Assembly: GCA_000934665.2 (NCBI GenBank) | Contig: JYFJ02000746.1 | Coordinates: 1-64,000 of the forward strand | DNA from: Catajapyx aquilonaris | Taxonomy: Eukaryota | Direction of reading: 5' to 3' | Length of the DNA: 64,000 nt | In this document: in pieces, positions 20,902 through 50,600 of the stretch | Layout: each line of letters starts with the position of its first letter | Position numbering within the stretch: position 1 is the first letter of the stretch | Translations under genes and position numbers: made by a program | Notes under the pieces: model-generated | Database searches by the model: none | Told to the model about the DNA's origin: nothing | The model's input: only the letters and a program-made list of their open reading frames with translations

Positions 20902-23259
20902 ATGGGGCTCGAAAGCACAATGATTTGGTGAGTTGAAGGATATTTTTTAAGGTTTAAAGTGACATGGAAAGGTCAAATCAGGTCAGAAACTATCGAATCA
21001 CGATCACTGAACATGATGGGAGGTCAAGGGTCATCGAATATTGGGAGGGTCAGCAGGTGTTCTGACCTGGAACAATAAGGCTTATATTTATGTTCCAAAC
21101 TGAATGGAACACTAGGTTTAACGGACGTTGAAAGGTCAAGTCAGGTCACAGTGATCGGATCACGATCACTGAACATGCTGGGAGGTCATAGGTCATCGAA
21201 TATTGGCAGTCGGCTGGTGTTCGGATCTTTTTATGTTCCGAACCATTCTGAACTGTACGGAACAATTCGCATGACTGCCATTCTGAACTGTACGGAACAA
21301 TTCTCATGACTGCCGTTCTGAACTGTACGGAACAATTCTCATGACTGCCGTTCTGAACTGTACGGGACAATTCTCATGACTACCTTTCTGAACAGTACGG
21401 AACAATTCGCATGACTGCCATTCTGAACTGTACGGAACAATTCGCATGACTGCCATTCTGAACTGTACGGAACAATTCGCATGACTGCCGTTCTGAACTG
21501 TACGGAACAATTCTCATGACTGGCTTTTTTCCCCCTTCTAGTGTGGACAACAGCGACTACATGCGCAATGGCGACTTTGTTCCAACACGCTTGCAGTCGC
21601 AGCAGGATGCGGTCAACATCATATGCCACTCAAAGGCTCGTGCGAATCCGGAGAACAATGTTGGATTGTTGACTCTGGCCAAGTAAGGTTTTGGGATAAT
21701 ACCAGGGCTTCATTTAAATGGTTTTGAAATTTTTTTGAACCAATATAATTTCCATTCTCCATTCCAATGCATTCTTTGCCATTTCTACCACTTGGCTCTG
21801 CCTTTTTTTCTCCCCCGCAGCAGTTCGGAGGTGTTGGCCACCCTTACAACGGATGTCGGTCGTATTCTGTCCAAGCTGCATCAGGTCACGCCTTGCGGGA
21901 ATGTCAATCTCCTGACTGGAATACGCATCGCTCATGTCAGTACTTACTGACTACTTGGACCATTAGACGTAAAGGTTTGATGCTAATTTTTGCTTTTATA
22001 GCTGGCTCTGAAGCATCGGCAGGGGAAGAACCACAAGATGCGGATCGTGGTTTTTGTAGGCAGCCCTGTGGTGACGGACGAGAAGGAATTGGTCAAGTTG
22101 GCCAAGCGTCTCAAAAAGGAGAAGGTCATGGTCGATGTCATCAACTTTGGTGAAGAGGTGGGTTCCCATACCATGGTTTTTTTCTGCAGATGAACTTGAA
22201 TAATTATTTAACGTAAGGCCGTAGAAGAAACGGTAACCGCAGCTTACATGTCGTTTTTTGCAGAGTCACAACACGGACACCTTGACGCAGTTTGTGAACA
22301 CTCTGAATGGGAAGGAAGGAACTGGAAGCCACCTGGTGACTGTATCTCCTGGTCCGCACCTAGCGGATGCTCTCATCTCCTCCCCAGTGGTACAGGGTGA
22401 GGATGGCGCAGGGGGAGCTGGACTTGTGGGCACCTCTGGCTTTGAATTTGGCGTGGACCCCAACGAAGATCCTGAGCTTGCACTGGCTCTCCGCGTGTCC
22501 ATGGAGGAGCAGCGCCAGCGCCAGGAGGAGCAAGCTCGCCGTGCCAGGGAGCAGTCTGCACAGGAGGCCGGCGGCACCACTGGAGACGTCGTAATGGCCG
22601 AACCAGGAGCAGACACGCCTGCCATGGACACTTCGGCGGAAGAGTCCCTTCTGGAAAAGGCACTGGCCATGTCCCTGGAGTCCACTGAGCGAGAAGGCGG
22701 AGAAGTTGCAGGAGGAGGAGTCGGAGCGGCAAGGGTCAGCAGCACAACCAGCGTCGGAAGTGGCGGAGGGAGGGGCGGAAGTGGGTTGGGGGTTGGAAAC
22801 CTGCCGGACTTCTCCCAGATGAGTGAGGATGACCAGATCGCCTACGCCATGCAGATGAGCATGCAGGATGCCCGTAAGTGTCTGCACGGCATGTTCCTTT
22901 GTTGAAGCTGCAATTAAATGGATTGTCATCTGTTTCCAGAGGAGCAGGCCCACCGTGGAAAGGGAAGCGAAGTAGGCTCCATGGAGGTGGACGAGGAGGA
23001 GGATTACGGCGAGGAGGAGGAGGAAGGCGGAGAAGGGAGGCGCGGGGACGAAGACTACTCCGAGGTCATCAGTGACCCTGCTTTCCTGCGCAGTGTGCTG
23101 GAGAACTTACCTGGTGTGGACCCACAGAGTGAGACAGTCCGATCAGCTGTAGGGTCATTGGCCACCCAGCAGCAGGAGCAGGAGCAGAAGAAGAAGGACG
23201 AGAAGAAGAAGGACGAAAAGAAGAAGGACGAAAAGAAGGATGCGAAGCGCAAGAAGTGA
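20902..23259 (+). CDS. PSMD4: 26S proteasome ubiquitin receptor Rpn10/S5a; exons 20902-20927, 21542-21682, ~21821-21935, 22002-22157, 22264-22873, 22940-23259
   Basis: [34 protein letters not shown] vWA start, [46 protein letters not shown], three UIM-like segments, [17 protein letters not shown] and a lysine-rich tail. Confidence 0.98.
21243..21522. repeat. 35-bp minisatellite x8 in PSMD4 intron 1 (CCATTCTGAACTGTACGGAACAATTCGCATGACTG)
   Basis: Head-to-tail near-identical units without spacers, ending about 20 nt before the exon 2 acceptor. Confidence 0.95.
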
Positions 23260-23410
23260 AGGAATAAAAGGAAGAGTGTACACGTAACTTAAAACAGCCC
23301 TTTTTTTGGTATGAATTGCTGAATTTAGCATTGCTTAAAATTTGTGTTTCCCTATCCTTTTTTTGCTAAGGGATTAATAAAGAGTAGGTAGTGGGAACAA
23401 TAATCAGTTT

Positions 23411-24120
23411 TTAATTTCTGAATGTGCTTGGTCCTGGGTCGACCTCTTCAGGCTTGAGGCCCCTGCGGCACCTGTTGAGAATGAAGTGCTTCTCCGTCTC
23501 ATCTGCCGTGCGCAGGTAGCGGCCTGAGTCATGCTGTTCTATACGATCAGTCTGCGGGTCGTAGTACCCATCGCAAGTGTCTCGGTGGTCTGGGATCAGC
23601 TGTGGTGGCGGGTCGCGGTTGGACTGCAGGGAACGTCCAGCAGGCTTGACCTGATCCAAGATCTCATTGTAGAACCTGTGGGGTGAGAATTGTCAATATC
23701 AACAGCAATGCCTATGGATGCACAAGTTAATTACCTCCTGTCTGGTGGTATGCAGTAATTCCACTTCTTCGGCTGGTAGACCAGCCCATCGTTGAAGGTG
23801 TAGACTCCATCCGTGTTTTTTCCGTCGATCCAGCTTCCTTCGAACTTGCCTCCGCTTGGGTAGAACAAGATCCCGTGTCCGTGGAAGCATCCGTCCTTCA
23901 TCCCACCCCTGTACTGCACACCTGCGGGACACCCAAACATGTCAGTTGCCTCTGGCGATGTAACCCAAGCGTAACTGACAATACCTGTAGCTAGCATGAA
24001 GGACCCTTCAATTTCCATCCGACCACCACGGTAGTGTCCCTGGTACTCGCTTCCGGTACAGAAAGTCTCACTCTTATGCTCATCAAGACTAGTCACTTTT
24101 CCAGGTCCTTCGCTCGTCAT
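23411..24120 (-). CDS. MORN5: MORN repeat-containing protein 5, copy A (3 exons, intact)
   Basis: TGSEYQGHYRGGRME..YRGGMKDGCFHGHG..YTFNDGLVY..WNYC..DRR/FYNEI..KPAG..DGYYDP..RYLRTAD..CRRG follows the MORN5 pattern (TGSKYIG..GRMEG..MKDGMFHGEG..WHYC..DRRFYTEI..LKPAG..DGFYNP..FLRNAD..CRKG). Confidence 0.92.
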
Positions 24121-24344
24121 TTTGTAAATATTTCATATGACCTGAATATCATTTTTGAAAATTTAGCTCGAAGTTTTGGATTGAACATGGCTTCTCACAC
24201 ATACTGATTGGCACGACCTGCACTAGTCACCTAGCAATGGCGGCCGTTTTGAAAGAACGCGCACTGTTTTCTCACAAAATCCGGGCTCAAACTGTGACCT
24301 GACCTGACCAAAACCTGTGCCGGTGACCATCTGACCTACCAGCC

Positions 24345-24500
24345 ATGCTTCGAGCCCTGTGACCCCAAAAATGACCCCACGTGGGTATAAATCTACTAAA
24401 TTTTGTTACCTGATTCAGAGAATTAACTTTTCATTCCTCTTTCCAGCAACGTCCAACTCGACTCAGAGTTGTTGTCACACTGTCATGGCAACGTCAACTG
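24345..24500 (+). pseudogene. Degenerate COX15 exon 1/exon 2 remnant
   Basis: ATGCTTCGAGCCCTG-TGA (MLRAL*), the donor CAC/GTGGGTATAAA and GTCATGGCAACGTCAAC match the COX15 5' region at 35431-35605. Confidence 0.85.
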
Positions 24501-24521
24501 CAATTTAGCCCAGTCTACATA

Positions 24522-26316
24522 TAGTCCGGGTGCTAAGGGGTTGAACTTTGCATTTTGTGACAAAAGTATGAAACTCGGTACACTTGTCCTTTGGACACTT
24601 CTGATCATATCTGGACGTGGAGCCACGATGACCCACCCCGGTTGTGGTCCATTTCGCAGGGTTTCCATATCTACCAGATGCAGCATCCTTTTAGGACCTT
24701 GTATTCGGTGACAAAAACATGAAACTCGCCCCAATTGGTCTTTGGACACTATTGAACATGTCTGGAAGTGAGGCCACTATGGATGACCCCGCTGGGGGTC
24801 ACTCGCAGGGTTGCCAGATCAGATCTAATGGGCTCTCTAAGTAAACTATGTGAATAGGGAGCTTGCATTCGGTGGCAAAGACGTGAAACTCGGTACAACA
24901 TAGTTCTTTGCACACTTCCGAACATATCTGGACCTGGGGACACGATGACCCACCCCGGTGGAGGGTACTATCATGGTGTTGCCAAATCTAACAGACTGTG
25001 CAACATGCGTTTATTTTTGAAATAATGAGCTTGCACTTGGTGACAAAGCCATAAAATTTGGTACGTTTAGTTCTTTGCACACTTCCGAACATATCTGGAC
25101 GTGGGGTGACGATGACCCACCTCGAGGGAGGGCACTATCGCAGGGTTGCCGTATATAGTCGGGGCAACCTAGAAATACTCCATATGAATAGGGAGCTTGC
25201 ATTCGGTGACAAAGCCATAAAACTTGGTACGTTAGTTCTTTGGACACTTCCGAACATATCTGGACGTGGAGCCACGATGACCCACCGAATGCAAGCTCAT
25301 TATTCAAAAATAAACACATGTTGCACATTCTGTTAGATATGGCAACCCTGCGATAGTGCCCTCCCTCGGGGTGGGTCATCGTGGCTCCACGTCCAGATAT
25401 GTTCGGAAGTGTGCAAAGAACAATTCTACCAAGTTTCACGTCTCTGTCACCAAATGCAAGCTCCCTATCAAAATATAAACGCATGTTGCACAGTCTGTTA
25501 GATTTGGCAACACCATGATAGTACCCTCCACCGGGGTGGGTCATCGTGTCCCCAGGTCCAGATATGTTCGGAAGTGTGCAAAGAACTATGTTGTACCGAG
25601 TTTCACGTCTTTGCCACCGAATGCAAGCTCCCTATTCACATAGTTTACTAGAGAGCCCATTAGATCTGATCTGGCAACCCTGCGAGTGACCCCCAGCGGG
25701 GTCATCCATAGTGGCCTCACTTCCAGACATGTTCAGTAGACCAATTGGGGCGAGTTTCATGTTTTATCAGTGTTTTATCACCGAATGCAAGGCCCTTATT
25801 CATGTAAAGGTGTGCAACGCATGTTCGATTTGGCAACTCCGCGATAGTGACCCCTGGCGAGGCCACCAGGGGTCACCCACCGTGACCCCATGTCCAGATA
25901 TGTTGAGATGTGTTCAAAGAACTACCGTGCCGAGTTCCACGTTTTTATCACCGAATGCAAGCTCCCAATTCACATGATCTTCGGAGAGATGTATGTTTGG
26001 TCCATTAGATCTGGTAACCCTGCAAGTGACCCACAGCGGGGTCAGTCATCATGGCCCCACATCCAGACATGTTCAGAAGTGTCCAAAGACCAATTGTGGC
26101 GAGTTTCATGTTTTTGTCACAGAATACAAGGTCCTAAAAGGATGCTGCATCTGGTAGATATGGAAACCCTGCGAAATGGACCACAACCGGTGTGGGTCAT
26201 TGTGGCTCCACGTCCAGATATGATCAGAAGTGTCCAAAGGACAAGTGTACCGAGTTTCATACTTTTGTCACAAAATGCAAAGTTTGGGTCAAATTTGTCC
26301 CTTAGCACCTGGACTA
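24522..26316. mobile_element. Non-autonomous palindromic (foldback) DNA transposon with TAG..CTA termini and a 3-bp ATA target-site duplication; possibly Academ-like
   Basis: Ends TAGTCCGGGTGCTAAGGG / CCCTTAGCACCTGGACTA. 24545-24749 is the near-exact reverse complement of ~26080-26285. Internal ~140-160 bp subrepeats switch orientation near 25285. ATA on both flanks (24519-21, 26317-19). The paralogous empty site TAC-ATA-AACTCATG lies near 33894-33907. Confidence 0.88.
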
Positions 26317-26344
26317 ATAAACTCATGTCAGCGAGCTCATGTTC

Positions 26345-26600
26345 TCAATATGTTGGGCCAAGTAATTTGGATCGTACCAGGGCACCATTTTAATGGTTTT
26401 AATATTTTTTGGCCTAATTTTCCGCAGTAATTGGGAGATGCTGGCCACCCTTACTATGCGGATGCCAGTCGTATTCTCTCCAAGTTGCCCATAAGCGAGT
26501 TCCTTTCCTGCGCAGTACTTACCTGGTGTGGACCCACAGAGTGAGAGAGTCAGCAGCAGGAGTATGAGCAGAAGAAGAACGCAAAACGCAAGAAGCGAAG
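26345..26600 (+). pseudogene. Degenerate, internally deleted PSMD4 remnant (exon 2 end/exon 3 joined to the last exon)
   Basis: GGCCAAGTAA..ACCAGGGC..CCGCAG..GGCCACCCTTAC..TCGTATTCT.TCCAAG matches 21677-21880, then jumps to CTTTCCTGCGCAGT..ACTTACCTGGTGTGGACCCACAGAGTGAG (23081-23133). Confidence 0.85.
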
Positions 26601-26714
26601 GAATAAAAGGCGTCCATGTAACTTGAAAATTTTTGTATTCTTTGCCAGATTTAGCATTACTTAAAATTTTGTTGTTTCCTATCATTTTTTTGCAAAGGCA
26701 GCAATGAGTAGTTT

Positions 26715-27072
26715 CTAACTCCTGAAAGTGGTTGGCCCTGGGTCGACCTCCTCAGGCTTGAGACCCCTGCGGCACTTGTTTAGTGTGAAGAGCTTCTCAG
26801 TCTTGTCTGCAGTGCGCAGGTAGCGGCCTGAGTCATGCTGGTGAATACGATGTGTCTGTGGGTCGTAGTATCCATCGCATGTGTCTCGGTGGTCTGGGTG
26901 CAGTGGGGGTGGCGGGTTGCAATTGGCCTGGAAGGAACATCCAGCAGGTTGGACCTCATCCAAGATCTCATTGTAGAAGCTGGATTTGTGGGAATAAATA
27001 TGATATAAGAGCAACATCCGCCACGTTGTCGAAAAATAATGCACAAGTTAATTACCGCCTGTCTGGTGGTAT
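26715..27072 (-). pseudogene. MORN5 copy B, 5'-truncated (last exon, intron 2 and a few codons of exon 2)
   Basis: The FYNEILDEVQPAG...CRRGLKPEEVDPGPTTFRS* exon is intact, but homology to copies C and E stops abruptly after GTCTGGTGGTAT at ~27072. Confidence 0.88.
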
Positions 27073-28063
27073 TATAGTACACTGAAGAGAGTGAAAAGTA
27101 TTTTTCAAGTCACTGCAGCTCTGAAAATAAGGACTCTACGTGGAAAAGGTATACTTATACTTTTTTTTGTGGCATACAATATGTTTCTGTACAACCTTTG
27201 TTTGTCACATTTCCTCCTGAGAAGCATAGTTCGCTCAGAAAAGACTTTTAACTCGCTTCAAAGTAGCCAATCCGCAATTACGGGCCTCCAGGACGAAAAC
27301 GGGCGTGGCGCCATATCTGAATTTGAAGAGTATGGCTCTCAGGGACATTTGTACCAAATTTCATGCTTTCTTCACCAAATGCACGGTTGACCCATTATTC
27401 AACGTCCGGATTCCTGATAACCCAACCTTTTTTTTTTCTCCGGTGATCACACTCCTCTACTCCGTTCGTCTTCATTTATTCGGGTTCTTGGCCTGGGGAA
27501 GTGCAGCAGGGGCCAGTGGGTGCACTGTCGCTCCCGCGGCGGGTTCGGCGGCTTGGGCGGCTACATGGTATGCACAAGGACATGGGAGAGTGACCTGGTC
27601 CTTTAAGATGTGAACAGGAATACTGAGCTGAAGTTGTAACAAGCCTGTTTACCACTGCCATTTTGAACCTCTCAAAGGGTAGGCCGTACCCGATAGTAGA
27701 CAGTAGGCCCTACCTCTGGAGCGCTGTGGGACAAAATTTGGGTCGCAATTAATTTTGAGACTACCTCACAAAATTAAGCAATTTTAAAGAATCCACTACT
27801 TAGCTTGGATCTTTTGCTAACACAATGTGTATTTTTTTTGCATGTTTGTCACATTGAACAATTGCTACACGTAATTTCTAACAACCTAATGCAACATCGC
27901 CCAATGTTCCCTGTTGCTGGGCAAATTTGGGACATGACGTGGAGTACTTTGGGACAATGATAATATTTCATGATTACAAGCCAATATAAGGAAAAGTCTT
28001 ATTATTACTTCTTGTGAGAGCTAACAAGTGACAACTTAAGACCTATCATGGGATATCCATTGG

Positions 28064-28064
<1 letters not shown>

Positions 28065-28135
<71 letters not shown>
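28065..28135. repeat. (TTG)n microsatellite
   Basis: About 23 uninterrupted TTG units; explains the poly-Cys and poly-Leu ORFs. Confidence 0.97.
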
Positions 28136-29994
28136 ACGACAGTGCAGTGGGCCAAATAACACTCTCAAAAGACTCAAGACGTCTGTTTGTTACAGCACAA
28201 TTACAATTGAATCATATAGAAATGGGAAAGTGCCATATAAGTGTTTTCTGAAATTAGGAACTTCAATATTAAGCACATTGAATTTCTATACGATTGGTTC
28301 GAATTATTGCCATGAAACATTCATGCAGAATCGTCACCTCTTTTAGGTGCTGATTTTAACTCTAATGTTTAATTTTTCACATATAAACGTTAATTTGTGA
28401 ATTTTAGAGGGTCTTTTTTGATTGGACCAAGTCTGTTAGGATGAGTTTAGTTTTTTCCCAAATTTTTTTTTTCTTTTCAAAATAAAACCCTACATACTGC
28501 TCTGAGCAGTTTGCAGCAGTAATTTTTACGAGTCGTTCCATGCAGTACTTGAGAATTGCTTGAGTAAGACCTATGGTACAGCTTAAATCAATTGGTGAAG
28601 GTCTTACATGAGCCAGCCTTGTTTCAGTACTTTCATTCCGCCACGGAGGTCTTACTACCCTTTTTTTCACTGAAGGGAATGTTTTTGCTCTTATTTCAGT
28701 TCTTTCTTTAAACCCCTTCGCAATACCAGCCTAGGTTGTCGCTTACATGTACTCTGAAGACAAGGACAAGATAGTGCTACAGTGATATATACATATCATA
28801 CTAATAGTCCAGTCAAATAATTGTTGATGGACCTAGAACAAACTGCAACAGAAATGGTGTCAACTGATTCTATAGTAAAAAATGGCGCTGAAAACGATGG
28901 AACACAGTCTGAGACTGTCCGGTCGCCCCAAAAGCCGCCATCTTGAAAAAATGGCGGCCAAATCGGATATGTTGAACAAAAACATTTTTTTATCACGGAA
29001 ACGACTCGGGTTTAATGGAAAGTGAACTGGACATAAATGAAACAGCATAGAATATACTTCAAGACGACACTTTCATCTTCTCTGTAGAGTGCATAATGTC
29101 GAATCTAGACAAGCATTCTCAAGTATCGCATTTGCCATCTTATGGCAAACTGAGTCTTTCATGGTGAATTGGGATAAAAACAAGAGTTCTTTAGGCCTGT
29201 ATGTGAAGTAGTATACGTGAATAACTGCATTTCATGCATTAATAACATTACATGGATACATAGATCTCCAACTACAGTAGCCTCCAGATATAACAGACTT
29301 CAATGGACTGCGGAATTCAGTCTGTTACAACCGAGATCTGTTGTAGGAAGATACACAGGGCATAATATATGGCAGTATGGCCGGTCCCAGCATACTTCCA
29401 AAAGGCCCTGTGCATATTCACTCCGGATATAACAGACTCATTTTTCACCTCACATCGGCTATATTAACAGACAATTTCTTGGCCCTTCTGTGGGAAAATA
29501 TGCTGTTTTCGATTACTCGGCGTCTACTTCCCACGCGAGGAAACCACTGGACTGAAAAGTGTACACTGGAGTACCTAATTCAAGGAGTACCAAGGAGTAC
29601 CAAATAGTAAAGTACCTATCAACCAACATCATCATCTGCGTAAAACTGGCTCTGGCCAGAATCCATGCCAACCCATTTCTGACTGGCTGGATGGCTCTGT
29701 CTGGATTTTGGATGCTGGGTTTCCGGATGGATGGCTCTGTCTGGATTTTGAATGCTGGGTTTGGAGATAATAGACCTGCAAGAGATTGACCAATGCATCG
29801 ATCCTAGTCAGTCGAATCACCACGTCCGAGTGCGGATAGGAGAGGTCCTAATAATCCGGGAAATATTCGATCTCGTCGATCTTGTCAAAGTGTTCCGCAA
29901 CATCTCCTCCTCCTTCGGTCGTTAAACTCTGTAGCGCCGATTGGGCTTCACTCGACAACATCGCGGATGTGTATGCGTAGGGCGATGTAGAGCG

Positions 29995-30060
29995 TGAGAC
30001 TGTCAGCAGCAGCAGGAGTATGAGCAGACGAAGGACGCAAAACGCAAGAAGCGAAGGAAT
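29995..30060 (+). pseudogene. Short PSMD4 last-exon remnant next to the 3' end of MORN5 copy C
   Basis: GTGAGAC.GTCAGCAGCAGCAGGAG..GAAGGACGCAAAACGCAAGAAGCGAAGGAATAAAAGG matches 26541-26610 and the PSMD4 3' end. Confidence 0.8.
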
Positions 30061-30188
30061 AAAAGGAATGGTACATGTAACTTTAAATTTTTTTGTATTC
30101 ATTGCCAGATTTAACATTACTTAAAATTTTGTTGTTTCCATATAATTTTTTGCAAAGGCCTTAGAGTAGTAGCAGCAATGAGCAGTTT

Positions 30189-30909
30189 TTAACTCCTGAA
30201 AGTGGTTGGCCCTGGATCGACCTCCTCAGGCTTGAGACCCCTGCGGCACTTGTTTAGTATGAAGAGCATATCAGTCTTGTCTGCAGTGCGCAGGTACCGG
30301 CCTGAGTCATGCTGGTGAATACGGTGTGTCTGTGGGTCGTAGTATCCATCGCATGTGTCTCGGTGGTCTGGGAGCAGTTCGGGTGGTGGGTTGCGATTGG
30401 ACTGGAAGGAACGTCCAGCAGGTTGGACCTCATCCAAGATCTCATTGTAGAAGCTGGATTTGTGGGAATAATGTCATATAAGAGCAACATCCGCCACATT
30501 GTCGAAAAATAATGCACAAGTTAATTACCGCCTGTCTGGTGGTATGCAGTAATTCCACTTCTTCGGGTTGTAGACCAGTCCATCGTTGAAGGTGTAGACA
30601 CCGTCCGTGTGTTTTCCGTCGATCCAGTTTCCTTCGTACTTGCATCCGCTTGGATAGTGCAAGACTCCGTGTCCGTGGAAGCATCCGTCCTTCATCCCAC
30701 CCCTGTACTGCACACCTGCGGGAGACACCAAAATATTAGTCATCTCAGAAGATCCAAGAGCAACTGACGATACCTGTAGATAGTGTGTACGACCCCTCAT
30801 CTTCCATCCGCCCACCACGGAAGTGTCCTTTGTACTCGCTTCCAGTGCAAAAAGTCTCACTACTGTCCAGCTCAATAATTTTTACTTTTGCAGGTCCTTC
30901 GCTGTTCAT
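30189..30909 (-). CDS. MORN5: MORN5 copy C (3 exons, intact; 30909-30774, 30715-30529, 30453-30189)
   Basis: MNSEGPAKVKIIELDSSETFCTGSEYKGHFRGGRMEDEGSYTLST/GVQYRGGMKDGCFHGHG..DRR/FYNEILDEVQPAG..TFRS*. GT-AG phases are consistent. Confidence 0.88.
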
Positions 30910-32106
30910 CCTGAAGTTTTTGTAGGACCTGAAATATGAACATCATCATCATCATCATCAAAGAATTATTTATTTTCATTTGGTCAACATTCGGCAATGG
31001 TCACTTGGACACAGCACACTTCAACAACATTAATCTCAAAATATTGACTGGATAAACATAAGACTATCATCAAAAACCATCATTTTGTGATTTTTTTTGG
31101 AATGGGGGTGGCGACATGAGAAGCTCAGCATAGGTGACAGCACTGCGCTTGAGGCCTCAGCAGATATGAGCCCCAAAATACAGGTTGGAGTGAATGGAGG
31201 TTAGGGCAACCTGGGGAATCGGTGCCCCCCCCCNCCCCCCCCCCCCCCCAAATATGGCGACCTCAACATCAGGCGTCAATGCACTGAACCGCACTGAGCT
31301 ATTTCATCCTATTTGTCAGGCTTCCTTGCGAACGTCTGAGGCGCATTGTAAGCCGCATAGTTAGGATAAAGGCTTCCGCCTAAAAAAAAAGTCTGGTACC
31401 CAAATTGTCACCATCACAACTCGCACAGTGTTGCAACAGTCATGGCATGTTCATTTGATACGATACTGTAACATATATTTAAACTACGTGCAGTGAGAGG
31501 CGTGAGTGAGCCAATATTTTCAGGTACTGCAGCAAGAGGGGCCATGGGCTGTCGAGGAAGGCGCCCAAATTCCCCTAGCTCTTTATTCTCGGCGGCGACC
31601 CGGAACGGATCAGACGTACTGTACTTGGCTGCGCTGATGTCAGTCACCCCCACCCGTGATCTAGGGGCCAGTGAACTCGGGGGGTCGATGGCCGACGACT
31701 ATCAACCTCCCTTGACATCGAGATGAAGCTGGCCTGAACCCTTGGCCGATCATAATAAGTAGGTCACCTTTTTTTTTTTCGCAGCCGAGGTTTGCCGCAA
31801 AGAGCTCGGGGCCGAATTCGGCGAGATTGGATCTGTTTGGAATTAATGGCCTGGCGACAGGGCAGTTGATGGGGGAAATATTTGGGTTGTTTCACTTGTT
31901 TGAAAATTATGTCCAGGGCAGCAGGTGCTATGGTGGGGGGCTGTTGTGCGAGGCTACAATTGGGGCCATTGAAATATCGTTGAAGGTGGAGGATGGGCCC
32001 ACGTGGGTATAAAATGCGACTAAAAAAAATTACCTGCTTTAATTATAATTGTCCTTTCCTCTTCTAGCGGCCTCCGATTACTCAACAATTATTCCCTAGA
32101 CGTGTC

Positions 32107-32538
32107 ATGGCAACGTCAACAGCGTCGTCGTCAATGGCAGCAGCGACTGGAAGCAGGGTCGTCGGCTGGTGGTGGGTTGGATGCAGCGGGATGGTCTTTG
32201 GAGCGGTGGTCCTCGGAGGTGTCACCAGGCTCACGGAGTCCGGCTTGTCCATGGTCACCTGGAAGCATGCAGGATGCCTGTAAGTGTCTGCACGGCATGT
32301 TCCTTTGTTGAAGCTGCGACTAAATGGATTGTCATCCACTTCCAGAGGAGCAGGCCCACAGTGGAAAGGGAAGCGAAGTAGGCTCCATGGAGGTGGACGA
32401 GGAGGAGGATTACGGCGAGGAGGAGGAGGAAGGCGGAGAATAGAGGCGAAGACTACTCCGAGGTCATCAGTGACCCTGCTTTCCTGCAGTGTGCTGGAGA
32501 ACTTACCTGGTGTGGACCCACAGAGTGAGACAGTCTGA
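32107..32538 (+). other. COX15::PSMD4 duplication-junction chimera (possible spliced 121-aa ORF or pseudogene)
   Basis: 31993-32266 copies COX15 exon 1 end, intron 1 and exon 2. 32264-32625 copies PSMD4 22858-23259. The junction shares AGC. Exons 32107-32279 and 32346-32538 form an open frame. Confidence 0.6.
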
Positions 32539-32754
32539 TCAGCTGTAGGGTCATTGGCCAGCCAGCAACAGGAGCAGGAGCAGAAGAAGAAGGACGAAAA
32601 GAAGGATGAGAGGCGCAAGAAGTGAAGGAATAAAAGGTAGAGTGTACACGTAACTTAAAAAAAGCGTTGCTTAAAATTTGTGTTTCCCTATCCTTTTTTT
32701 GCTAAGGGATTAATAAAGCTCGGAGTAGGTAGTGCTGGGTACAATAATCACTTT

Positions 32755-33470
32755 TTAATTTATGAATGTGCTTGGTCCTGGGTCGACCTCGTCAGGCTTG
32801 AGGCCCTTGCGGCAGAAATTGAGAATGAAGTGCTTCTCCTTGTAATCTGCAGTGCGCAGGTAGCGGCCTGAGTCATGCTGGTATATACGATCAGTCTGCG
32901 GGTCGTAGAATCCATCGCCCGTGTCTCGGTGGTCCGGAAGCAGCGGCGGTGGCGGGTCGCGGTTGGAATGCAGGGAACATCCAGCAGGCTTGACCTCATC
33001 GAAGATCTCTTTGTAGAACCTGTGGGGTGAGAATTATTGTCAATATCAACAGCAATGCTTATGGATGCACAAGTTAAATACCGCCTGTCTCGTGGTATGC
33101 AGTAATTCCACTTCTTCGGGTTGTAGACCAGCCCATCGCTGAAGGTGTAGACTCCATCCATGTTTTTCCCGTCGATCCAGCTGCCTTCGAACTTGCCTCC
33201 GCCTGGGTAGGACAAGATCCCGTGTCCGTGGAAGCATCCGTCCTTCATCCCACCCCTGTACTGCACACCTGCGGGACACCCAAACATGTCAGTTGCCTCT
33301 GGCGATGTAACCCAAGCGTAACTGACAATACCTGTAGGCAGTGTGAAGGACCCATCATCTTCCATCCGCTCACCACGGAACAGTCCCCGGTACTCGCTTC
33401 CGGTACAGTAAGTCTCACTCTTCCGCTCCTCAGTACTGCTCACTTTTCCAGGGCCTTCGTTCGTCATCAT
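32755..33470 (-). CDS. MORN5: MORN5 copy D (3 exons, intact; closest to copy A)
   Basis: MMTNEGPGKVSS..TGSEYRGLFRGERME../GVQYRGGMKDGCFHGHG..DRR/FYKEIFDEVKPAG..TGDGFYDP..CRKGLKPDEVDPGPSTFIN-TAA after splicing both introns. Confidence 0.9.
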
Positions 33471-33699
33471 CTTTTAATAATTCTTCTGACCTGCAATGTG
33501 TGACATAATTTTGAAAATTTATCTCTAAGATTAGGAATAAACATGGCTTCCTACACATATGATTACTATAACCTGGACTATAGTCACATAACAATGGGGG
33601 CCGTTTTGAAAGAACTCGCACTGTTTTCTCACAAAAATTGGGCTCAAACCTGACCTGACCGGCCTAACACCTGCCCGGTGACCTCCTGACCCACCAGCC

Positions 33700-34170
33700 A
33701 TGCTTTGAGCCCTGTGACCCCAAAAATGAACCCATGTGGGTATAAATCTACTGCTTTTTCCTTTACCTGATTCAGAGAATTAACTTTTCATGACTCTTCC
33801 CACCGACGTCCAATTCTATTCTAAGTCGTTGTCACACTGTCATGACAACATCAACAGCAGTTTAATTACCCCAGTCTGCAGTGTGAACTGTGTTACATAA
33901 ACTCATGATCTCAATATGTTGGGCCAATAAGTAATCGTACCAGGGCGGCATGGTTTTAATATTTTTTGACCTCACTTTCCGCAGGGAGATGCTGGGGCCA
34001 CCCTTACTACAAGGATGCTGTTCGTAATCTCTCGAAGTTGTCAATCAGCGAGTTGCTTTCCTGCGCAGTACTTACCTGGTGTGGACCCACCGAGTGAGAC
34101 AGTCAGCTGCAGGGTCATTGGCCAACCAGCAGCAGGAGCAAGAGAAGGACGCAAAACGCAAGAAGCGAAG
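33700..34170 (+). pseudogene. Older COX15-5'/PSMD4 junction remnant (uninterrupted paralog of 24345-26600)
   Basis: ATGCTTTGAGCCCTGTGA..GTGGGTATAAA..GTCATGACAACATCAAC (COX15-derived), followed by PSMD4 exon 2/3-derived and last-exon-derived sequence. Confidence 0.82.
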
Positions 34171-34303
34171 GAATAAAAGGCGTACACGTAACTTCAAATT
34201 TTTTGTATTCATTGCCATATTTAGCATTACTTAAAATTTGGTTGTTTCCCTATCATTTATTGCAAAGGGCTTATTAAAGAGTAGTGGGAGCAATGTGCAG
34301 TTT

Positions 34304-35017
34304 TTAACTCCTGAATGTGGTTGGCCCTGGGTCGACCTCCTCAGGCTTGAGACCCCTGCGGAACTTGTTTAGTATGAAGAGCATCTCAGTCTTTTCTGCA
34401 GTGCGCAGGTACCGGCCTGAGTCATGCTGGTGAATACGATGTGTCTGTGGGTCGTAGTATCCATCGCATGTGTCTCGGTGGTCTGGTTGCAGTGGGGGTG
34501 GCGGGTTGCGATTGGACTGGAAGGAATGTCCAGCAGGTTGGACCTCATCCAATATCTCATTGTAGAAGCTGGATTTGTGGGAATAATGTGATATAAGAGC
34601 CACGTTGTCTAAAAATAATGCACAAGTTAATTACCGCCTGTCTGGTGGTATGCAGTAAAGCCACTTCTTTGGCTTGTAGACCAGTCCATCGTTGAAGGTG
34701 TAGACGCCATCCGTGTGTTTTCCGTCGATCCAGTTTCCTTCGTACTTGCATCCGCTTGGATAGTGCAATACTCCATGTCCATGGAAGCATCCGTCCTTCA
34801 TCCCACCCTTGTACTGCACACCTGCGGGACACCCCAAAGTATTAGTCGTCTCAAGCTGATGTATATCCAAGCGTAACATACCTGCAGATAGTGTGTACGA
34901 CCCCTCATCCTCCATCCGCCCACCACGGAAGTGTCCTTTGTACTCGCTTCCAGTGCAAAAAGTCTCACTACTATCCTCCTCATTACTTCTTAGTTTTGCA
35001 GGTCCTTCGCAGTACAT
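34304..35017 (-). CDS. MORN5: MORN5 copy E (3 exons, intact; closest to B and C; head-to-head with COX15)
   Basis: MYCEGPAKLRSNEEDSSETFCTGSEYKGHFRGGRMEDEG../GVQYKGGMKDGCFHGHG..DRR/FYNEILDEVQPAG..TFRS*. Confidence 0.9.
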
Positions 35018-46572: not shown

Positions 46573-47565
46573 TCAGCTGAATCCAAGCTGGTTGTTCTCA
46601 TGGGCTGTGACTCGAGGGAGCGCCCTGAAGGCAAAGGCGCATTGGACTTTACAGACGTGATCCTGAAGGATGGCCTCGGTTGTGAAGCTCTGGGCCAGCT
46701 GGTAGCAGTTGCTTATTCGCAACGACTGGCACAGAGGCTAATAGATAATTAAATTGTGTCGGATTACATCGGAAAGGTCAATTTATATGTTGATGTGCTA
46801 ACTCACCCCTTCTTTAGTACAGGTGCACATGACACATGGCGATATCCGATCAGCAGCACCAACGCCTATGCTCATGGAACCAACACCACAGTTGACTCGC
46901 TCATTCCACAAGTCGAGGTCAAGGTCAGGAATCGACCTGCATGGAACTCTCGGATTTCTGCAAATAAATTAATGGTTTGTTGACCATTTTCCATACCTAG
47001 TTGGACCAACGATACTCACAAGAATGGTTCTGGAAGATCCAGGAGGTTCCTCTGGACTGAGATGACACTGTCTGTGTTGTCGCACATGAGCCTGGCCAGC
47101 GAGACCCTCCTAATTGAGTCCAATTGAGCCTCATTAAACCGGATCAGAGGATCAACCGACTCATACCAGAACCGGTCGCATCTCCTCAGCTTCCTAAACT
47201 GCATAGCGATGATGCAAGCGAAAGTGGGTCCAACCAGTCCTCCAGGAAGAGCCGTCTCCGCAAGTCCTCCAGGGAACAGGTCAATATCATCCACGCTCTT
47301 GTACAGCTCCCTCAGCCTCTGGACCAACGCCGGACTCATCTCGCCTCCTAAGTCGGAGAAGTCTCTTGCTCTGGTCAGATTGCATAGTGCTCTGTACTGG
47401 TTGTACGGCTGTAGGGCATGGTCTCGACCTCTCTGTACGTTAAGAGCAGCCAGATCCATACCGGAAAAGGGCTGACCTCTTCGTTCAAACAGATGGTTGG
47501 TCACTTCTTCTGTTATGAAATGGTCCATTGTCTCCATCGGTGTGGTCACTAGTCCTCGAACCACC

Positions 47566-47643
<78 letters not shown>

Positions 47644-50600
47644 GAGAGTAGGTCAATACTAATCGACTGACCTCATCGACCATTCCTGCTTCGTAGAGCG
47701 CATCTGGGTTGAAGAAAGTGTCTCTGAGCTGCAAGACTGGCTGCTTTTCTCTGAGGTCGCCGTCCTTCCTGGGCAGTGCTGGTCGAAGGAGCGAGTGACC
47801 AAACCGGAAGGCGGCAGCCCCAAACTCGTTCCAGACGCTGGGGTCACACTCGGGGTCATACTCTTGGAAGTAGCCCTCGGATAGTGGCTCCAGGCCATGC
47901 TGATGGACCGCCTCCCAGCCCAAGACACGAGGAAGAAACTCTGAGAAGGTGACATGCTGGGTGATTGCGGACAGTATGCGACGTCCCTCCTGGTACAGTC
48001 TTTCGTCTGACCAATGCTTGTTCCTTTTGGACAGCTCAGTGGTCAGCCGGTTGTGTTCTCGAAGCCAAACGGTATGCAGAACAGCCAGACCAGGCTGCTC
48101 ACTAGCTCGTTGGTCACCAGCTTCGAAGCACAACCCCGACCCAGACTTACACTCTTTGTTCTGGGTCGTGGTCGGCATCAGGTCCTTTCCACGTACCGGA
48201 TGACGTGTCACGTTCAGCTTACCTCCGTTGAACGAACGTAGCTTTCGAGCTTCACACACGTCCGATCCATACGTATGTGAGGCGTCCACAAACGCTGTCA
48301 CTTGGTTCATCTGCTCACGAGGACCTGTTGGTTTGGAGCATTTTTAAAAAGATGTAACCCTCTGGGGATTCACGAGTCCTGGCCTGATTTCTTCCGCCGC
48401 TGACGTTGGGAGGAAGTGGGTGGAGCCTAACAGGCCAGGACTCGTGAATCGCATCACTTACCGAGAGTGAGCTGACCAGGAAGTGATCGTGTGAATGAGA
48501 GACAGGCTGGCTTTCCAGTTGTCTTGTTGATTGTAGGGAAGTAGTGGTCACCTGCCGGTACGGGTATGGGCCAACACTCCGGATGGACCGTTCTGGATGC
48601 ATCACAAGGTCGGCAGTCAAGGATCGAGTTTCCTGCACCTGTCATGTGTGAAACAATGTAAAAGCTGCGCTTTCTCATATAGTTCGTTGATGAGTACCTC
48701 GATTCATTGGAGTGTGAGTGAGGTCGTGATCTAACAGCTGGGCGTACTGCATGAGCATCAGTGTGTACCGTCGATGTGGAGCGCTGATGTCTCCGTGCAT
48801 TGATGTGGATACCAGACGAGGTGATGGTAGCTGCGATCCGTCTTTTGCAAGTTGTCTGGGTTTGGACAGTCCGTCCTGGTAGATCGGAGGTAGCAAACGA
48901 GCGAATGCCCTAAGAGCCTTGCCCCAATCGGCATGTCGCAGATTGTTGCACCATCCTGTCGTTGACCTGAACGGCGAGGTATGATCACAAGGAAGAGTCT
49001 GCTCATCACAAGGAAACACACGAGGAAGATCCACCACTTCTCCAACCTCGATGCTAGGAAGAGCTTCCATCAACTCACGAAGATCTCGAGGAACCACACC
49101 GCCTCTTTCACTATCCTTCAGTTCCCTATTATACAATGTAAATGTATTGTCATCCACAACTTTATAATAAACAACAATTGCGACACTTACAATACTCGGG
49201 CTGATGTGAACTGCAGAAGTAGCGATGTGTTGGAAATTAAAAGCGCCTGTCTTTTCGGTCTGTTGAATCCGGATGCTGTTCCCACAGGCGAAAGAGGATC
49301 GGCTGTTCTATCTGTAATGTGATTTACGAGCTAATAAGACATTCGTAAAATATATACCAAACAATGCAGGATGTGTATACTAACGTGACCGGAACAGCTC
49401 CCATTCTCGAATCCTGACTGCTTTGAGTTCATTCCGACCTCTTTCAACCGCGTCTCGAAGTACCTGTGGCGGAACTGTGACGTCCGGTGCGGCTGTACGC
49501 CATTTGGACAGGTCCATCCTTCTCAAGGCGTCTCCGTCGCAATGCATCGGGGCATTACTGCAGAGGATGCCCCCCGAATTACCATCAATGAAATTTTGAT
49601 TAATCACAGTCGGGCTTACAGAAAAGGATCCTCTTGAAGAAAGACACTCGGTTGAACCGATTGCAAATTGTCGCTATTGTCGCAAATTAGTCGAGCCAAC
49701 GTGACCTTCCGGATCTCATTTAGTTGATCTGTAAACCAGACAGTTTAAAAGTGTAACCTTGAAATTCGGGGGCCTGACTTACCAATAGAAAATGATGATG
49801 GTGGCAGATCATTCTCGTACCAGTAGCGATCACCACGACGAATTAAATGGAATTGTCTGCCCAGAAGACATGTGAATGTCGGACCAAGAAGTGCACCTTC
49901 CCTTGAAATTTCAGCCAATCCTCCAGTGAACAAATCCACATCATTTACTGTCCTGAAGCACAACAATATTTTAGTGTACTGCACTTATTACACATGAGAA
50001 CCCCCAAACGCACTTGTAAACTTTTTGAAGGGCCGACACTGTTTTTTGAGGTATAACATCAGCAAGTTCCTGGAATCTACTGGCTTCTGAAAGTCCGCAA
50101 AACTTTCTCCAGCGGTTGTATCCTGGAAGACCATGGTCTCGACCTTGCTGGATGATTTGAGCTGCCAGATCCATTCCGACCCCAGTCTTCGGATCTTCGA
50201 ACATTCGGTCCACCATTACATCGTTGATATACTCATCTTCTAGCTCCGCTTTACCCTTCAGGAGACCTTGGATTATCTGGTCAAGACCTCCAACATTGTA
50301 CAGATCCAGAGGAGAGTAGAAACTGTCAGACATGTTTTTCTCTCCAACCTGTATTCAAATAGGGACGAATTGATGGATGATCTTTACTACGCGGCGAAGT
50401 GGGCGGAGCCACTTCGCCGCGTAGTAAAGATCAGCCGAATTGAGGAACGATTACCATGTACTGTACTGTCAAACTGGACATACCTTTTTGCCCTTGATGT
50501 CGTAAAGATGAAGTGTTGTTGGAGCAAGTGATGCGATGAACCATAGAGCTGCAGCAGCCACCGCGTTGGCCATTCCTCCATTCATGTCAATGTCATAACC

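Follow-up and report, generated by a model that had tools for sequence, protein, structure and literature searches.

Introduction

Young gene duplicates experience relaxed constraint, with omega (dN/dS) rising towards 1 soon after duplication. The closest described systems are the primate red/green opsin and colobine RNASE1 genes, reported in PMC3924837 as tandem paralogues with a peak of divergence under interlocus gene conversion, i.e., with non-coding regions more alike than the coding ones, conversion tracts, and a mosaic of divergence; according to the same source, the differences between the exons are preserved there by selection, as shown by orthologue comparisons and known functional sites. 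Branch-site tests are subject to false positives generated by multi-nucleotide mutations, as described in bioRxiv 10.1101/165969. Regarding the protein considered here, mammalian MORN5 is presented in bioRxiv 10.1101/2025.05.19.654877 as a component of the stalk of radial spoke 3, with STYXL1, CFAP91, and CFAP61 as binding partners, and the mouse orthologue is described in PMC5526581 as a protein of the sperm flagellum carrying three MORN motifs. Among the literature titles retrieved on MORN5 and positive selection, none concerned paralogue arrays.

The window analysed, i.e., the whole stretch of 64 kb from Catajapyx aquilonaris, contains five tandem MORN5 copies (A–E) of two types, all on the minus strand. 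A sequence-only reading of this DNA had attributed the heavy amino acid divergence of copies A and D, found beside near-identical introns, to diversifying selection. The comparison of the copies suggests that the A/D pattern is probably a gene-conversion mosaic combined with relaxed constraint after duplication, without demonstrated adaptive change.

Organization of the Array and Identity of the Genes

The MORN5 array lies tail-to-tail with a convergent gene on the plus strand (21749..23364), recognized by its open reading frames and by a Pfam UIM match (3.1e-10), which we take to encode a PSMD4/Rpn10-like proteasome ubiquitin receptor, the UIM being the only part of this assignment supported by Pfam. 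The last intron of this neighbour is located at 22874-22939, its stop codon at 23257-23259, and its transcript end at 23364; a spliced RNA-like contig of run X5, which covers the neighbouring gene only, skips 22874-22939 and terminates at 23364. A dead relic of the 3' end of the same gene, carrying in-frame stops and deletions of 8 nt and 2 nt, is present beside copy D (32264..32660, plus strand) and was used as the neutral yardstick for the D lineage. Among the 10 A/D differences at 23140-23410, seven are derived in D and none in A, one is mixed, and two are not polarisable; the downstream flank is evidently constrained on the A side.

Copy A (23411..24120) is made of exons at 23985-24120, 23735-23921, and 23411-23675, separated by introns of 63 nt (23922-23984) and 59 nt (23676-23734), and copy D (32755..33470) of exons at 33332-33467, 33082-33268, and 32755-33019, separated by introns of 63 nt (33269-33331) and 62 nt (33020-33081), with a second in-frame ATG at 33468-33470 beside exon 1. 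In both copies the three exons, bounded by GT..AG introns, sum to 588 nt, corresponding to 195 codons and a stop, and the reading frames are intact, with neither premature stops nor frameshifts. The type-2 copies are B, C, and E: copy B (26715..27072, minus strand) is 5'-truncated, its homology ending at 27072, and is reduced to the final part of exon 2, intron 2, and an exon 3 that is still open, and copies C (30189..30909) and E (34304..35017), on the same strand, are intact and of 195 codons each.

The identification of these genes as MORN5, already proposed in the sequence-only reading, is borne out by comparison with solved structures. Exon 3 (87 aa) matched only two PDB sequences at E<=1, both of them MORN5 chains (2e-12 and 2.3e-11), over residues 91-170; exon 2 gave 37 matches, led by MORN1 and MORN5 chains, and is collinear with residues 30-89 of the same MORN5 chains. 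The matches of exons 2 and 3 to the solved MORN5 chains 9fqr_Xu and 9d2f_I have E values of 1e-17 to 2e-12. The Pfam MORN repeat (PF02493), with a cut-off of 22.5 bits, scored 24.4 in D and 21.4, just below the cut-off, in A; both marks of a MORN5 protein are present, namely MORN repeats in the N-terminal half and a MORN5-specific C-terminal half. A homologous-protein search with the read-through of D (exon 1, intron 1, and exon 2) gave no match. Exon 3 of copy C had 34 matches at E<=0.001 among representative proteins, none of which reached E<=1e-10 and the best showing 36% identity, and the protein collections searched held no outgroup near enough for dS.

Coding Differences between Copies A and D

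Copies A and D differ in 47 of 195 codons, 36 of which are replacements, and in 60 of 585 nucleotides, with no indels. The differences in exon 1 involve 16 of 45 codons, 14 non-synonymous and two synonymous only (codons 5 and 43); seven of the replacements are two-letter changes (codons 10, 12, 15, 29, 33, 37, and 42), including CAT/CGG, ATT/GAT, and ATG/ACA. Exon 2 contains six replacements and three synonymous differences, and exon 3 contains 16 and six, respectively. The exon 1 counts of the sequence-only reading are thus exact on the codon table, and its figures of about 6 and 16 replacements in exons 2 and 3, without stops or frameshifts, are confirmed.

The 14:2 codon ratio of exon 1 is nevertheless within chance, since the Nei-Gojobori count assigns 18.0 non-synonymous and 5.0 synonymous differences to 105.5 and 29.5 sites, giving an omega of 1.01 (Fisher p = 1.0). 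Adjacent double differences are equally common in the non-coding flank, where 15 adjacent pairs occur among 66 substitutions. A hypermutation of the exons driven by CpG sites or transitions was considered and is unsupported: kappa is ~1.1, and the transition:transversion ratio is 22:38 in exons versus 44:43 in non-coding DNA (p = 0.13).

Mosaic Structure of the A/D Alignment

Intron 1 is identical in the two copies (63/63) and intron 2 differs by two substitutions and a 3-nt indel, reproducing what had been reported from the sequence; the caveat then added, that the upstream non-coding flanks are diverged, holds as well, with 65 of 379 aligned nucleotides (0.17) differing across 400 nt. The identity of intron 1 belongs to a longer identical tract of 126 nt (A 23865..23990, D 33212..33337, minus strand) that starts in exon 1, 6 nt before its end, spans intron 1, and extends 57 nt into exon 2. 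When the events were shuffled, a run of this length had a p of 5e-5 in the 1.6-kb homologous block, 2.5e-4 in the gene, and 0.0028 from intron 1 to the stop.

The segmentation of the A/D alignment with the best BIC consists of three segments with breakpoints at 23990 and 23865, off the exon borders. The old 5' block (A 23991..24519, D 33338-33880, minus strand) includes exon 1 and the upstream flank and shows 97 events in 535 positions (0.181); the central segment shows 0 in 125; and the younger 3' block (A 22858..23864, D 32264-33211, minus strand), which runs from the remaining part of exon 2 through intron 2, exon 3, and the intergenic DNA into the neighbouring gene's end, shows 65 in 944 (0.069). 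A four-segment model setting the MORN5 body (9.1%) apart from the neighbour-gene part (4.6%) was not preferred by BIC. In exon 1, dN is 0.194 and dS 0.192, to be compared with 0.17 in the upstream flank, so that coding and non-coding DNA are equally diverged (Fisher p = 1.0).

The length of the tract, beyond chance, points to interlocus gene conversion at the 126-nt stretch, and a significantly long stretch of identity reaching past the exon border on either side, between blocks of different age, would account for the identity of intron 1. Patchy gene conversion, mentioned in the sequence-only reading as a possible contributor, thus becomes the main candidate cause of the exon/intron contrast, and this contrast loses its value as a sign of selection on the exons. 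The dS between A and D (0.13) is significantly above the intron divergence (p = 0.0017); with synonymous sites more diverged than introns, the introns are no neutral yardstick for this comparison. Within the 3' block, the exons (37/395) were compared with introns that are neutral in both lineages, namely MORN5 intron 2 and the last intron of the neighbour (7/125), giving a Fisher p of 0.27, or 0.018 when intron 1 is added. In exons 2-3, the divergence of synonymous and of non-synonymous sites exceeds that of the introns plus the 450-nt downstream flank (15/480; p = 0.004 each), an excess that is discounted because on the A side this flank belongs to the neighbouring gene, whose end is functional there.

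The array as a whole shows signs of active conversion. The two gene types differ at 1.5-4 third positions per 20 codons in exon 2 versus 6.5-7.5 in exons 1 and 3, and the dS between them is 0.15-0.34 in exon 2 versus 0.43-0.62 in exon 3; the divergence between C and E is likewise uneven (up200 0.09, intron 1 0.17, intron 2 0.05, down200 0.18). The grouping AD|CE is backed by 93 of the 97 informative sites in the window, which argues against recent exchange between types, and, with only four of 97 sites in conflict, it was rejected that A or D had received patches of exon sequence from B, C, or E, the copies of type 2.

dN/dS and Site Tests

The codon models used were custom-written rather than taken from PAML and were applied to four sequences. 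The pairwise omega of A and D over the whole gene is 0.69-0.91 by four methods; the values for exons 1, 2, and 3 are 1.01, 0.86, and 0.70, with 0.81 overall. On the A and D branches omega is 0.70 versus a background of 0.24 (LRT p = 0.006); it does not differ from omega = 1 (p = 0.27), and the profile-likelihood interval is about 0.38-1.35. Taken singly, the A branch has an omega of 0.52 and the D branch of 0.80, the latter indistinguishable from 1. The diversifying selection claimed from the sequence is therefore not sustained by dN/dS, which is significantly above 1 nowhere, values over ~1.35 being excluded on the A and D branches; of that claim, the faster amino acid evolution of these branches stands and the positive selection does not.

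The standard branch-site test gave 2dlnL = 5.70 (p = 0.017) and placed 13.6% of sites in a class with omega 4.5, sites 176, 167, 37, 154, and 42 ranking highest, and the comparison of M1a with M2a gave p = 0.115. When a multi-nucleotide parameter, itself supported (p = 0.003), was introduced, the branch-site p rose to 0.17, and 2dlnL fell to 0 once the 12 multi-hit codons among the 195 were dropped. The two-letter codon differences, put forward in the sequence-only reading as a mark of selection, are consequently the sole source of the branch-site signal and lose it under the multi-nucleotide model. An estimated 72% of codons are under strong constraint (omega0 = 0.12), which, with a branch average of 0.70, leaves the remaining codons at or above the neutral rate; such codons would look like what is expected for a minority of positively selected sites.

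Interpretation and Alternative Explanations

The features described are best reconciled by a gene-conversion mosaic with relaxed constraint, in which the diverged exon 1 beside an identical intron 1 would be a seam of the mosaic rather than a mark left by selection on the protein. The upstream flank and exon 1 form an old piece, with a difference of ~18% whether the DNA is coding or not; the 126-nt piece, fully identical across both borders of intron 1, would be best explained by recent interlocus gene conversion; and the 3' piece, ~7% different, would be of intermediate age and homogenised earlier through a longer conversion or an unequal crossover. The replacements within each block would pile up at about the local neutral rate, which suggests that side-chain constraint was strongly relaxed after duplication, more in D than in A, and the raised omega would reflect this relaxation rather than adaptation. 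Selection still maintains both frames and the conserved MORN5 core.

Diversifying selection could instead act on a subset of A/D codons, about one in seven, for example through sperm competition or a specialisation of sperm versus somatic cilia, with selection against homogenised alleles keeping the exons different while conversion erases the non-coding differences, as in the peak-of-divergence model of the primate opsins. Several observations are compatible with it: the raised omega of the A and D branches and the standard branch-site result, the intact frames and conserved core, and the pattern shared with the opsin and RNASE1 duplicates (PMC3924837). Moreover, lineage-specific changes in exons and non-coding DNA are 44:10 in A and D versus 26:27 in C and E, an exon excess in the former pair (Fisher p = 0.0005), and at positions 44 (P) and 142 (G) copy D carries the residue of the orthologue consensus, from which A, C, and E differ. 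Against it, no exon or branch has an omega significantly over 1, dN does not outstrip dS, the 400 nt of promoter and flank beyond exon 1 are just as diverged as the exon itself, and the exons of the 3' block are not distinguishable from the truly neutral introns. The branch-site signal comes wholly from the 12 multi-letter codons, the artefact named in 10.1101/165969, and the omega of exon 1 is near 1 in the C-E pair too (1.20), exon 1 being apparently a low-constraint region in every copy. Overall, diversifying selection is a possible but rather unlikely explanation, and it is doubtful that A and D encode MORN5 isoforms with different functions in the radial spoke 3 stalk (e.g., of sperm versus somatic cilia), with ~one codon in seven diversifying and selection resisting the homogenisation of non-coding DNA by conversion.

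D, or both A and D, could also be non-functional and drifting to pseudogenes, their frames open by luck. The omega of D, not separable from 1, agrees with this, as does the larger number of lineage-specific exon changes in D than in A, 29 versus 15 overall (binomial p = 0.049) and 20 versus 7 in exons 2-3 (p = 0.019); the MORN5 copies are without transcript evidence, the RNA-like contigs of X5 leaving them uncovered and being uninformative either way. However, the exons have no indel events versus 15 per 87 substitutions in non-coding DNA, when ~4.6 to 10.3 would be expected (P = 0.01 to 3e-5), and the probability of no stop after 60 random substitutions is 0.10. Of the 33 positions with a conservation of 80% or more among 25 distant orthologues, D keeps 29, the most among the four copies (A 28, C 27, E 27); its start codon and canonical splice sites are present and its MORN score is above the Pfam cut-off. 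A drift to pseudogene is accordingly improbable, and selection evidently still holds both reading frames open and preserves the MORN5 core. The identity of intron 1 might also derive from a function of its own, the intron carrying for example a structured RNA, an element for splicing or regulation, or in-frame coding sequence that is retained, and the intron is indeed 63 nt long, in frame, and stop-free in both copies and can form an 8-bp hairpin. This explanation is very unlikely, as the fold has a z-score of -1.0, the identity extends past the intron on both sides, and the counterparts in C and E are of 58 and 60 nt and 17-26% different; a functional RNA in particular was rejected, with 30 of 200 shuffles folding as well and no Rfam match in any MORN5 copy (three weak matches in 12.5 kb were all elsewhere). 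Finally, collapsed or chimeric paralogues joined through the shared tract could mimic a mosaic, and the short-read contigs of runs X1 and X2 do break at 23766/23772 and 23961, at the edges of the shared stretch, leaving the linkage of the 5' and 3' blocks unspanned. The reads examined came from three of five runs of two samples, as contigs from which variants are dropped. Both versions of every diverged segment are nonetheless recovered, at depths of 28-39, from two runs assembled separately (32-39 for the A version and 28-37 for the D version), and independent contigs with both versions at similar depth make an assembly artefact scarcely credible; a swap of the 5' blocks would alter no pairwise A-D statistic, only which lineage counts as faster.

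Comparison with Known Systems

The probable gene-conversion mosaic of A and D offers a worked example of a trap in which identical introns beside diverged exons of tandem paralogues mimic positive selection and two-letter codon changes inflate branch-site tests. Since MORN5 is a fixed structural part of mammalian radial spoke 3, a five-copy array is a curiosity, if a modest one, for the biology of cilia and sperm; it would be more important if the copies were tissue-specific isoforms, and distinct A and D isoforms, if real, would be a rare instance of a structural axonemal protein diversifying adaptively among tandem copies.

The array copies share with mammalian MORN5 the three-MORN layout and the MORN5-specific C-terminal half. 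They are, however, of 195 codons, compared with 161-172 residues in mammals (161/170 in PMC5526581, 170/172 in the PDB chains), have a ~20-residue N-terminal extension and a longer C-terminal tail, and are present as five tandem copies of two types. The behaviour of A and D resembles that of young duplicates in general, as the two youngest branches show an omega ~three times higher, unequal between A (0.52) and D (0.80), and the frames stay open; unlike in simple young duplicates, conversion confounds the A/D history and the age of the duplication differs by block. The branch-site result is like the multi-nucleotide artefact described in 10.1101/165969, the signal deriving entirely from codons with two or three letters changed and being lost when double changes are allowed; in contrast to that work, the multi-nucleotide model applied here was custom-built for four sequences and is not the published test. 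With respect to the opsin and RNASE1 genes of PMC3924837, A and D are likewise tandem paralogues with conversion tracts and a mosaic of divergence, their non-coding DNA being in part more alike than the coding one; they differ in that exon 1 shares its divergence with the adjoining non-coding flank and omega is ~1 or less, and they correspond to an ordinary mosaic of young tandem duplicates.

The MORN5 Array and Its Surroundings

Five MORN5-like genes form a tandem array on the minus strand at 22.8-35.3 kb of the window: copies A (23411-24120), C (30189-30909), D (32755-33467) and E (34304-35017) are intact, with exons of 136, 187 and 265 nt (195 codons each) and GT..AG introns of 58-75 nt, and copy B (26715-27072) has lost all the sequence upstream of the exon 2 end. 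An extra in-frame ATG at 33468-33470 lies immediately 5' of the start common to A and D, and the copy D protein may be one residue longer by this second ATG. The genes are identified as MORN5 because exon 3 has two matches among solved chains at E ≤ 1, both MORN5 (2e-12 and 2.3e-11, residues 91-170), and exon 2 matches residues 30-89 in the same two chains; the Pfam MORN repeat is present in both A and D, over the cut-off in D and slightly below it in A. In mouse, MORN5 lines the radial spoke 3 stalk with STYXL1, CFAP91 and CFAP61 (10.1101/2025.05.19.654877), and is also a sperm-tail protein (PMC5526581).

The copies fall into two types, type 1 (A and D) and type 2 (B, C and E), with a between-type dS of ~0.43 and 93 of 97 informative sites backing the AD|CE split. 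The [A, B] unit is collinear with the [D, E] unit except where a 1.8-kb repeat has been inserted between A and B, a layout suggestive of a two-gene block duplication. The insertion (24522-26316) is made of units of ~165-167 nt in two oppositely oriented tandem arrays (24522-25286 versus 26316-25535, 78% alike) and is probably a repeat element or foldback; on both strands of 25258-25398 only weak, sub-threshold MIR169-like Rfam matches were seen. The homology of copy B ends abruptly at 27072, and the following 2.9 kb up to C (27073-30006) contain a perfect (TTG)n run at 28065-28135 and gave no Pfam match in their open frames. The C-D stretch (31098-31993) exceeds the homologous stretch upstream of E by ~640 nt and includes a single N at 31234; either an assembly gap or an insertion of uncertain status may lie here.

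Copy A is arranged tail-to-tail with a plus-strand gene that we take to be PSMD4/Rpn10-like, in which Pfam recognises a UIM and whose last intron (22874-22939) and 3' end (23364) are given by a spliced RNA-like contig. The duplicated unit begins at 22858, inside this gene, and therefore a relic of its 3' end accompanies every MORN5 copy (32264-32660, 33902-34303, 26336-26714 and 30007-30188); the relic adjoining D carries in-frame stops, frameshifts and deletions of 8 and 2 nt. A second local tandem duplication is seen on the minus strand, where two animal haem peroxidase genes lie side by side (47019-49307 and 49974-51815). The domain search, covering 63 of the 167 listed open frames of at least 90 aa, also found ionotropic glutamate receptor, SNRNP200-type helicase, COX15 and MMS19 domains besides the haem peroxidase, which marks the DNA as part of an animal genome.

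Mosaic Divergence of Copies A and D

The sequence-only reading had set a strong protein divergence between A and D beside near-identical introns, and its counts are all correct: 16 of the 45 codons of exon 1 differ, 14 by replacement (seven with two changed letters) and 2 synonymously, a further 6 replacements fall in exon 2 and 16 in exon 3, all of intron 1 is identical (63/63), intron 2 differs by 2 substitutions and one 3-nt indel, both genes are free of stops and frameshifts, and the upstream flank is diverged. Both versions occur at equal depth in the per-run contigs of two sequencing runs from one sample. At position 23653, one of several such positions in exon 3 of copy A, five contigs of run X1 show a letter other than that of copy A (depth 182.9 of 215.3), against only four exon 3 copies other than A in the window; they may stem from a divergent allele or from a sixth copy located elsewhere in the genome.

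When the 1.6-kb A-D alignment was divided according to event density, with 147 substitutions and 15 separate indels counted over 1604 positions, three segments had the best BIC: 24519-23990, comprising the upstream flank and exon 1 (97/535 = 18.1%), 23989-23865 (0/125) and 23864-22858 (65/944 = 6.9%). The borders do not track exons, as the identical run of 126 nt reaches 6 nt into exon 1 and 57 nt into exon 2; its length is beyond chance (p=5e-5, 2.5e-4 or 0.0028, by reference stretch). A role of gene conversion, which had been raised as a caveat, is supported by a run crossing exon borders and by the three-segment mosaic.

Within the 3' block, from the rest of exon 2 to the end of the neighbouring gene, 5 of 66 positions differ in the last intron of that gene and 2 of 59 in MORN5 intron 2, together 7/125, while the exon parts have 37/395 (p=0.27); by this test the neutral yardsticks agree with the exons. 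Divergence appears lower in the downstream flank (~4%), where a functional gene ends on the A side, and the 10 differences at 23140-23410 comprise 7 derived in D, none in A, 1 mixed and 2 that cannot be polarised. The ~18% divergence of the 5' block is in line with that of the B-E and C-E flanks (0.18-0.19), which fits one old block duplication, after which A and D would have been homogenised in their 3' part. Conversion is probably not confined to the A-D pair: the C-E pair is likewise uneven, and between types, synonymous divergence in exon 2 (23735-23921 in A, and its counterparts in C, D and E) is at most half that of exons 1 and 3. The low exon 2 values point to an older between-type exchange or to nucleotide-level constraint; the first 57 nt of this exon show 0-7 differences in all pairs.

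Rates and Tests of Selection

The 14:2 count of exon 1 is not evidence of positive selection, because non-synonymous sites are 3.6 times more numerous and because some steps on a two-letter path are synonymous; the Nei-Gojobori method gives 18.0 non-synonymous changes over 105.5 sites and 5.0 synonymous over 29.5, for an omega of 1.01 (Fisher p=1.0). Omega is 0.86 in exon 2, 0.70 in exon 3 and 0.81 in the whole gene (p=0.51), with pairwise values of 0.69-0.91 by four methods. Synonymous sites have diverged as much as replacement sites (dS 0.13, dN 0.105), both above the introns (2/122, p about 0.002); selection on the protein is unable to raise dS, so the introns are the unusual part. Exon 1 divergence is not above that of the 400 nt of upstream non-coding DNA (65/379 = 0.17, p=1.0).

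In self-written codon models of four sequences only (A, D, C and E), the maximum-likelihood branch model assigned omega 0.70 to the A and D branches versus 0.24 elsewhere (p=0.006), and this acceleration of protein evolution is real; the single-branch values are 0.52 for A and 0.80 for D. The joint value does not differ from 1 (p=0.27; profile likelihood ~0.38 to 1.35). The sequence-only reading is partly supported: faster protein evolution is borne out, positive selection is not. The branch-site test with A and D as foreground was nominally significant (2dlnL 5.70, p=0.017) and put 13.6% of sites in a class with omega 4.5. The sites ranked highest (176, 167, 37, 154 and 42) are codons in which two or three letters have changed. 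A multi-nucleotide parameter is supported (p=0.003) and brings the test to p=0.17, and removal of the 12 multi-hit codons of 195 abolishes the signal entirely; it is the type of artefact from multi-nucleotide change described in 10.1101/165969. Adjacent double differences are equally frequent in the upstream flank (15 pairs in 66 substitutions) and exon 1 (8 in 23). M1a versus M2a was not significant (p=0.115). Of four papers matching MORN5 and positive selection, none had a title on paralogue arrays.

Constraint and the Adaptive Alternative

Both A and D clearly remain under selection. Their 588 coding nt hold no indel, with ~4.6-10.3 expected (P = 0.01 to 3e-5) from the 15 indel events per 87 substitutions of non-coding DNA, and only 10% of simulations of 60 random substitutions were stop-free. 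At the 33 positions conserved at 80% or more in 25 of 34 distant orthologue hits (the nine left out were a fragment of 103 aa and eight sequences exceeding 250 aa), A keeps 28, D 29, C 27 and E 27. Open frames and retained positions would also suit adaptive change at a minority of A/D sites, as would the tendency of A/D differences to fall in columns of lower conservation (mean 0.42 versus 0.54, p=0.04) and the excess of lineage-specific exon over non-coding changes in A and D (44:10, versus 26:27 in C and E; p=0.0005); moreover, with most codons constrained and a mean omega of 0.7, the free codons must evolve at or above the neutral rate. All these facts are equally expected from relaxed constraint together with homogenised or constrained non-coding DNA, and adaptive sites are considered unlikely.

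Copy D evolves faster and under less constraint than A: it has 29 lineage-specific exon changes to the 15 of A (p=0.049), and in exons 2-3 the numbers are 20 and 7 (p=0.019). The choice of the faster lineage in a given block hinges on 5'-3' linkage across the tract common to A and D, at which the short-read contigs break; nothing but this choice depends on that linkage.

Comparison with Known Systems

The closest described situation is the mosaic or peak of divergence in tandem duplicates under interlocus gene conversion, including primate opsins and colobine RNASE1, whose introns are more alike than their exons (PMC3924837). MORN5 A and D resemble these duplicates in combining a mosaic with conversion; in opsins and RNASE1, however, orthologues and functional sites prove that the exons are held apart by selection, a proof that the MORN5 pair lacks.
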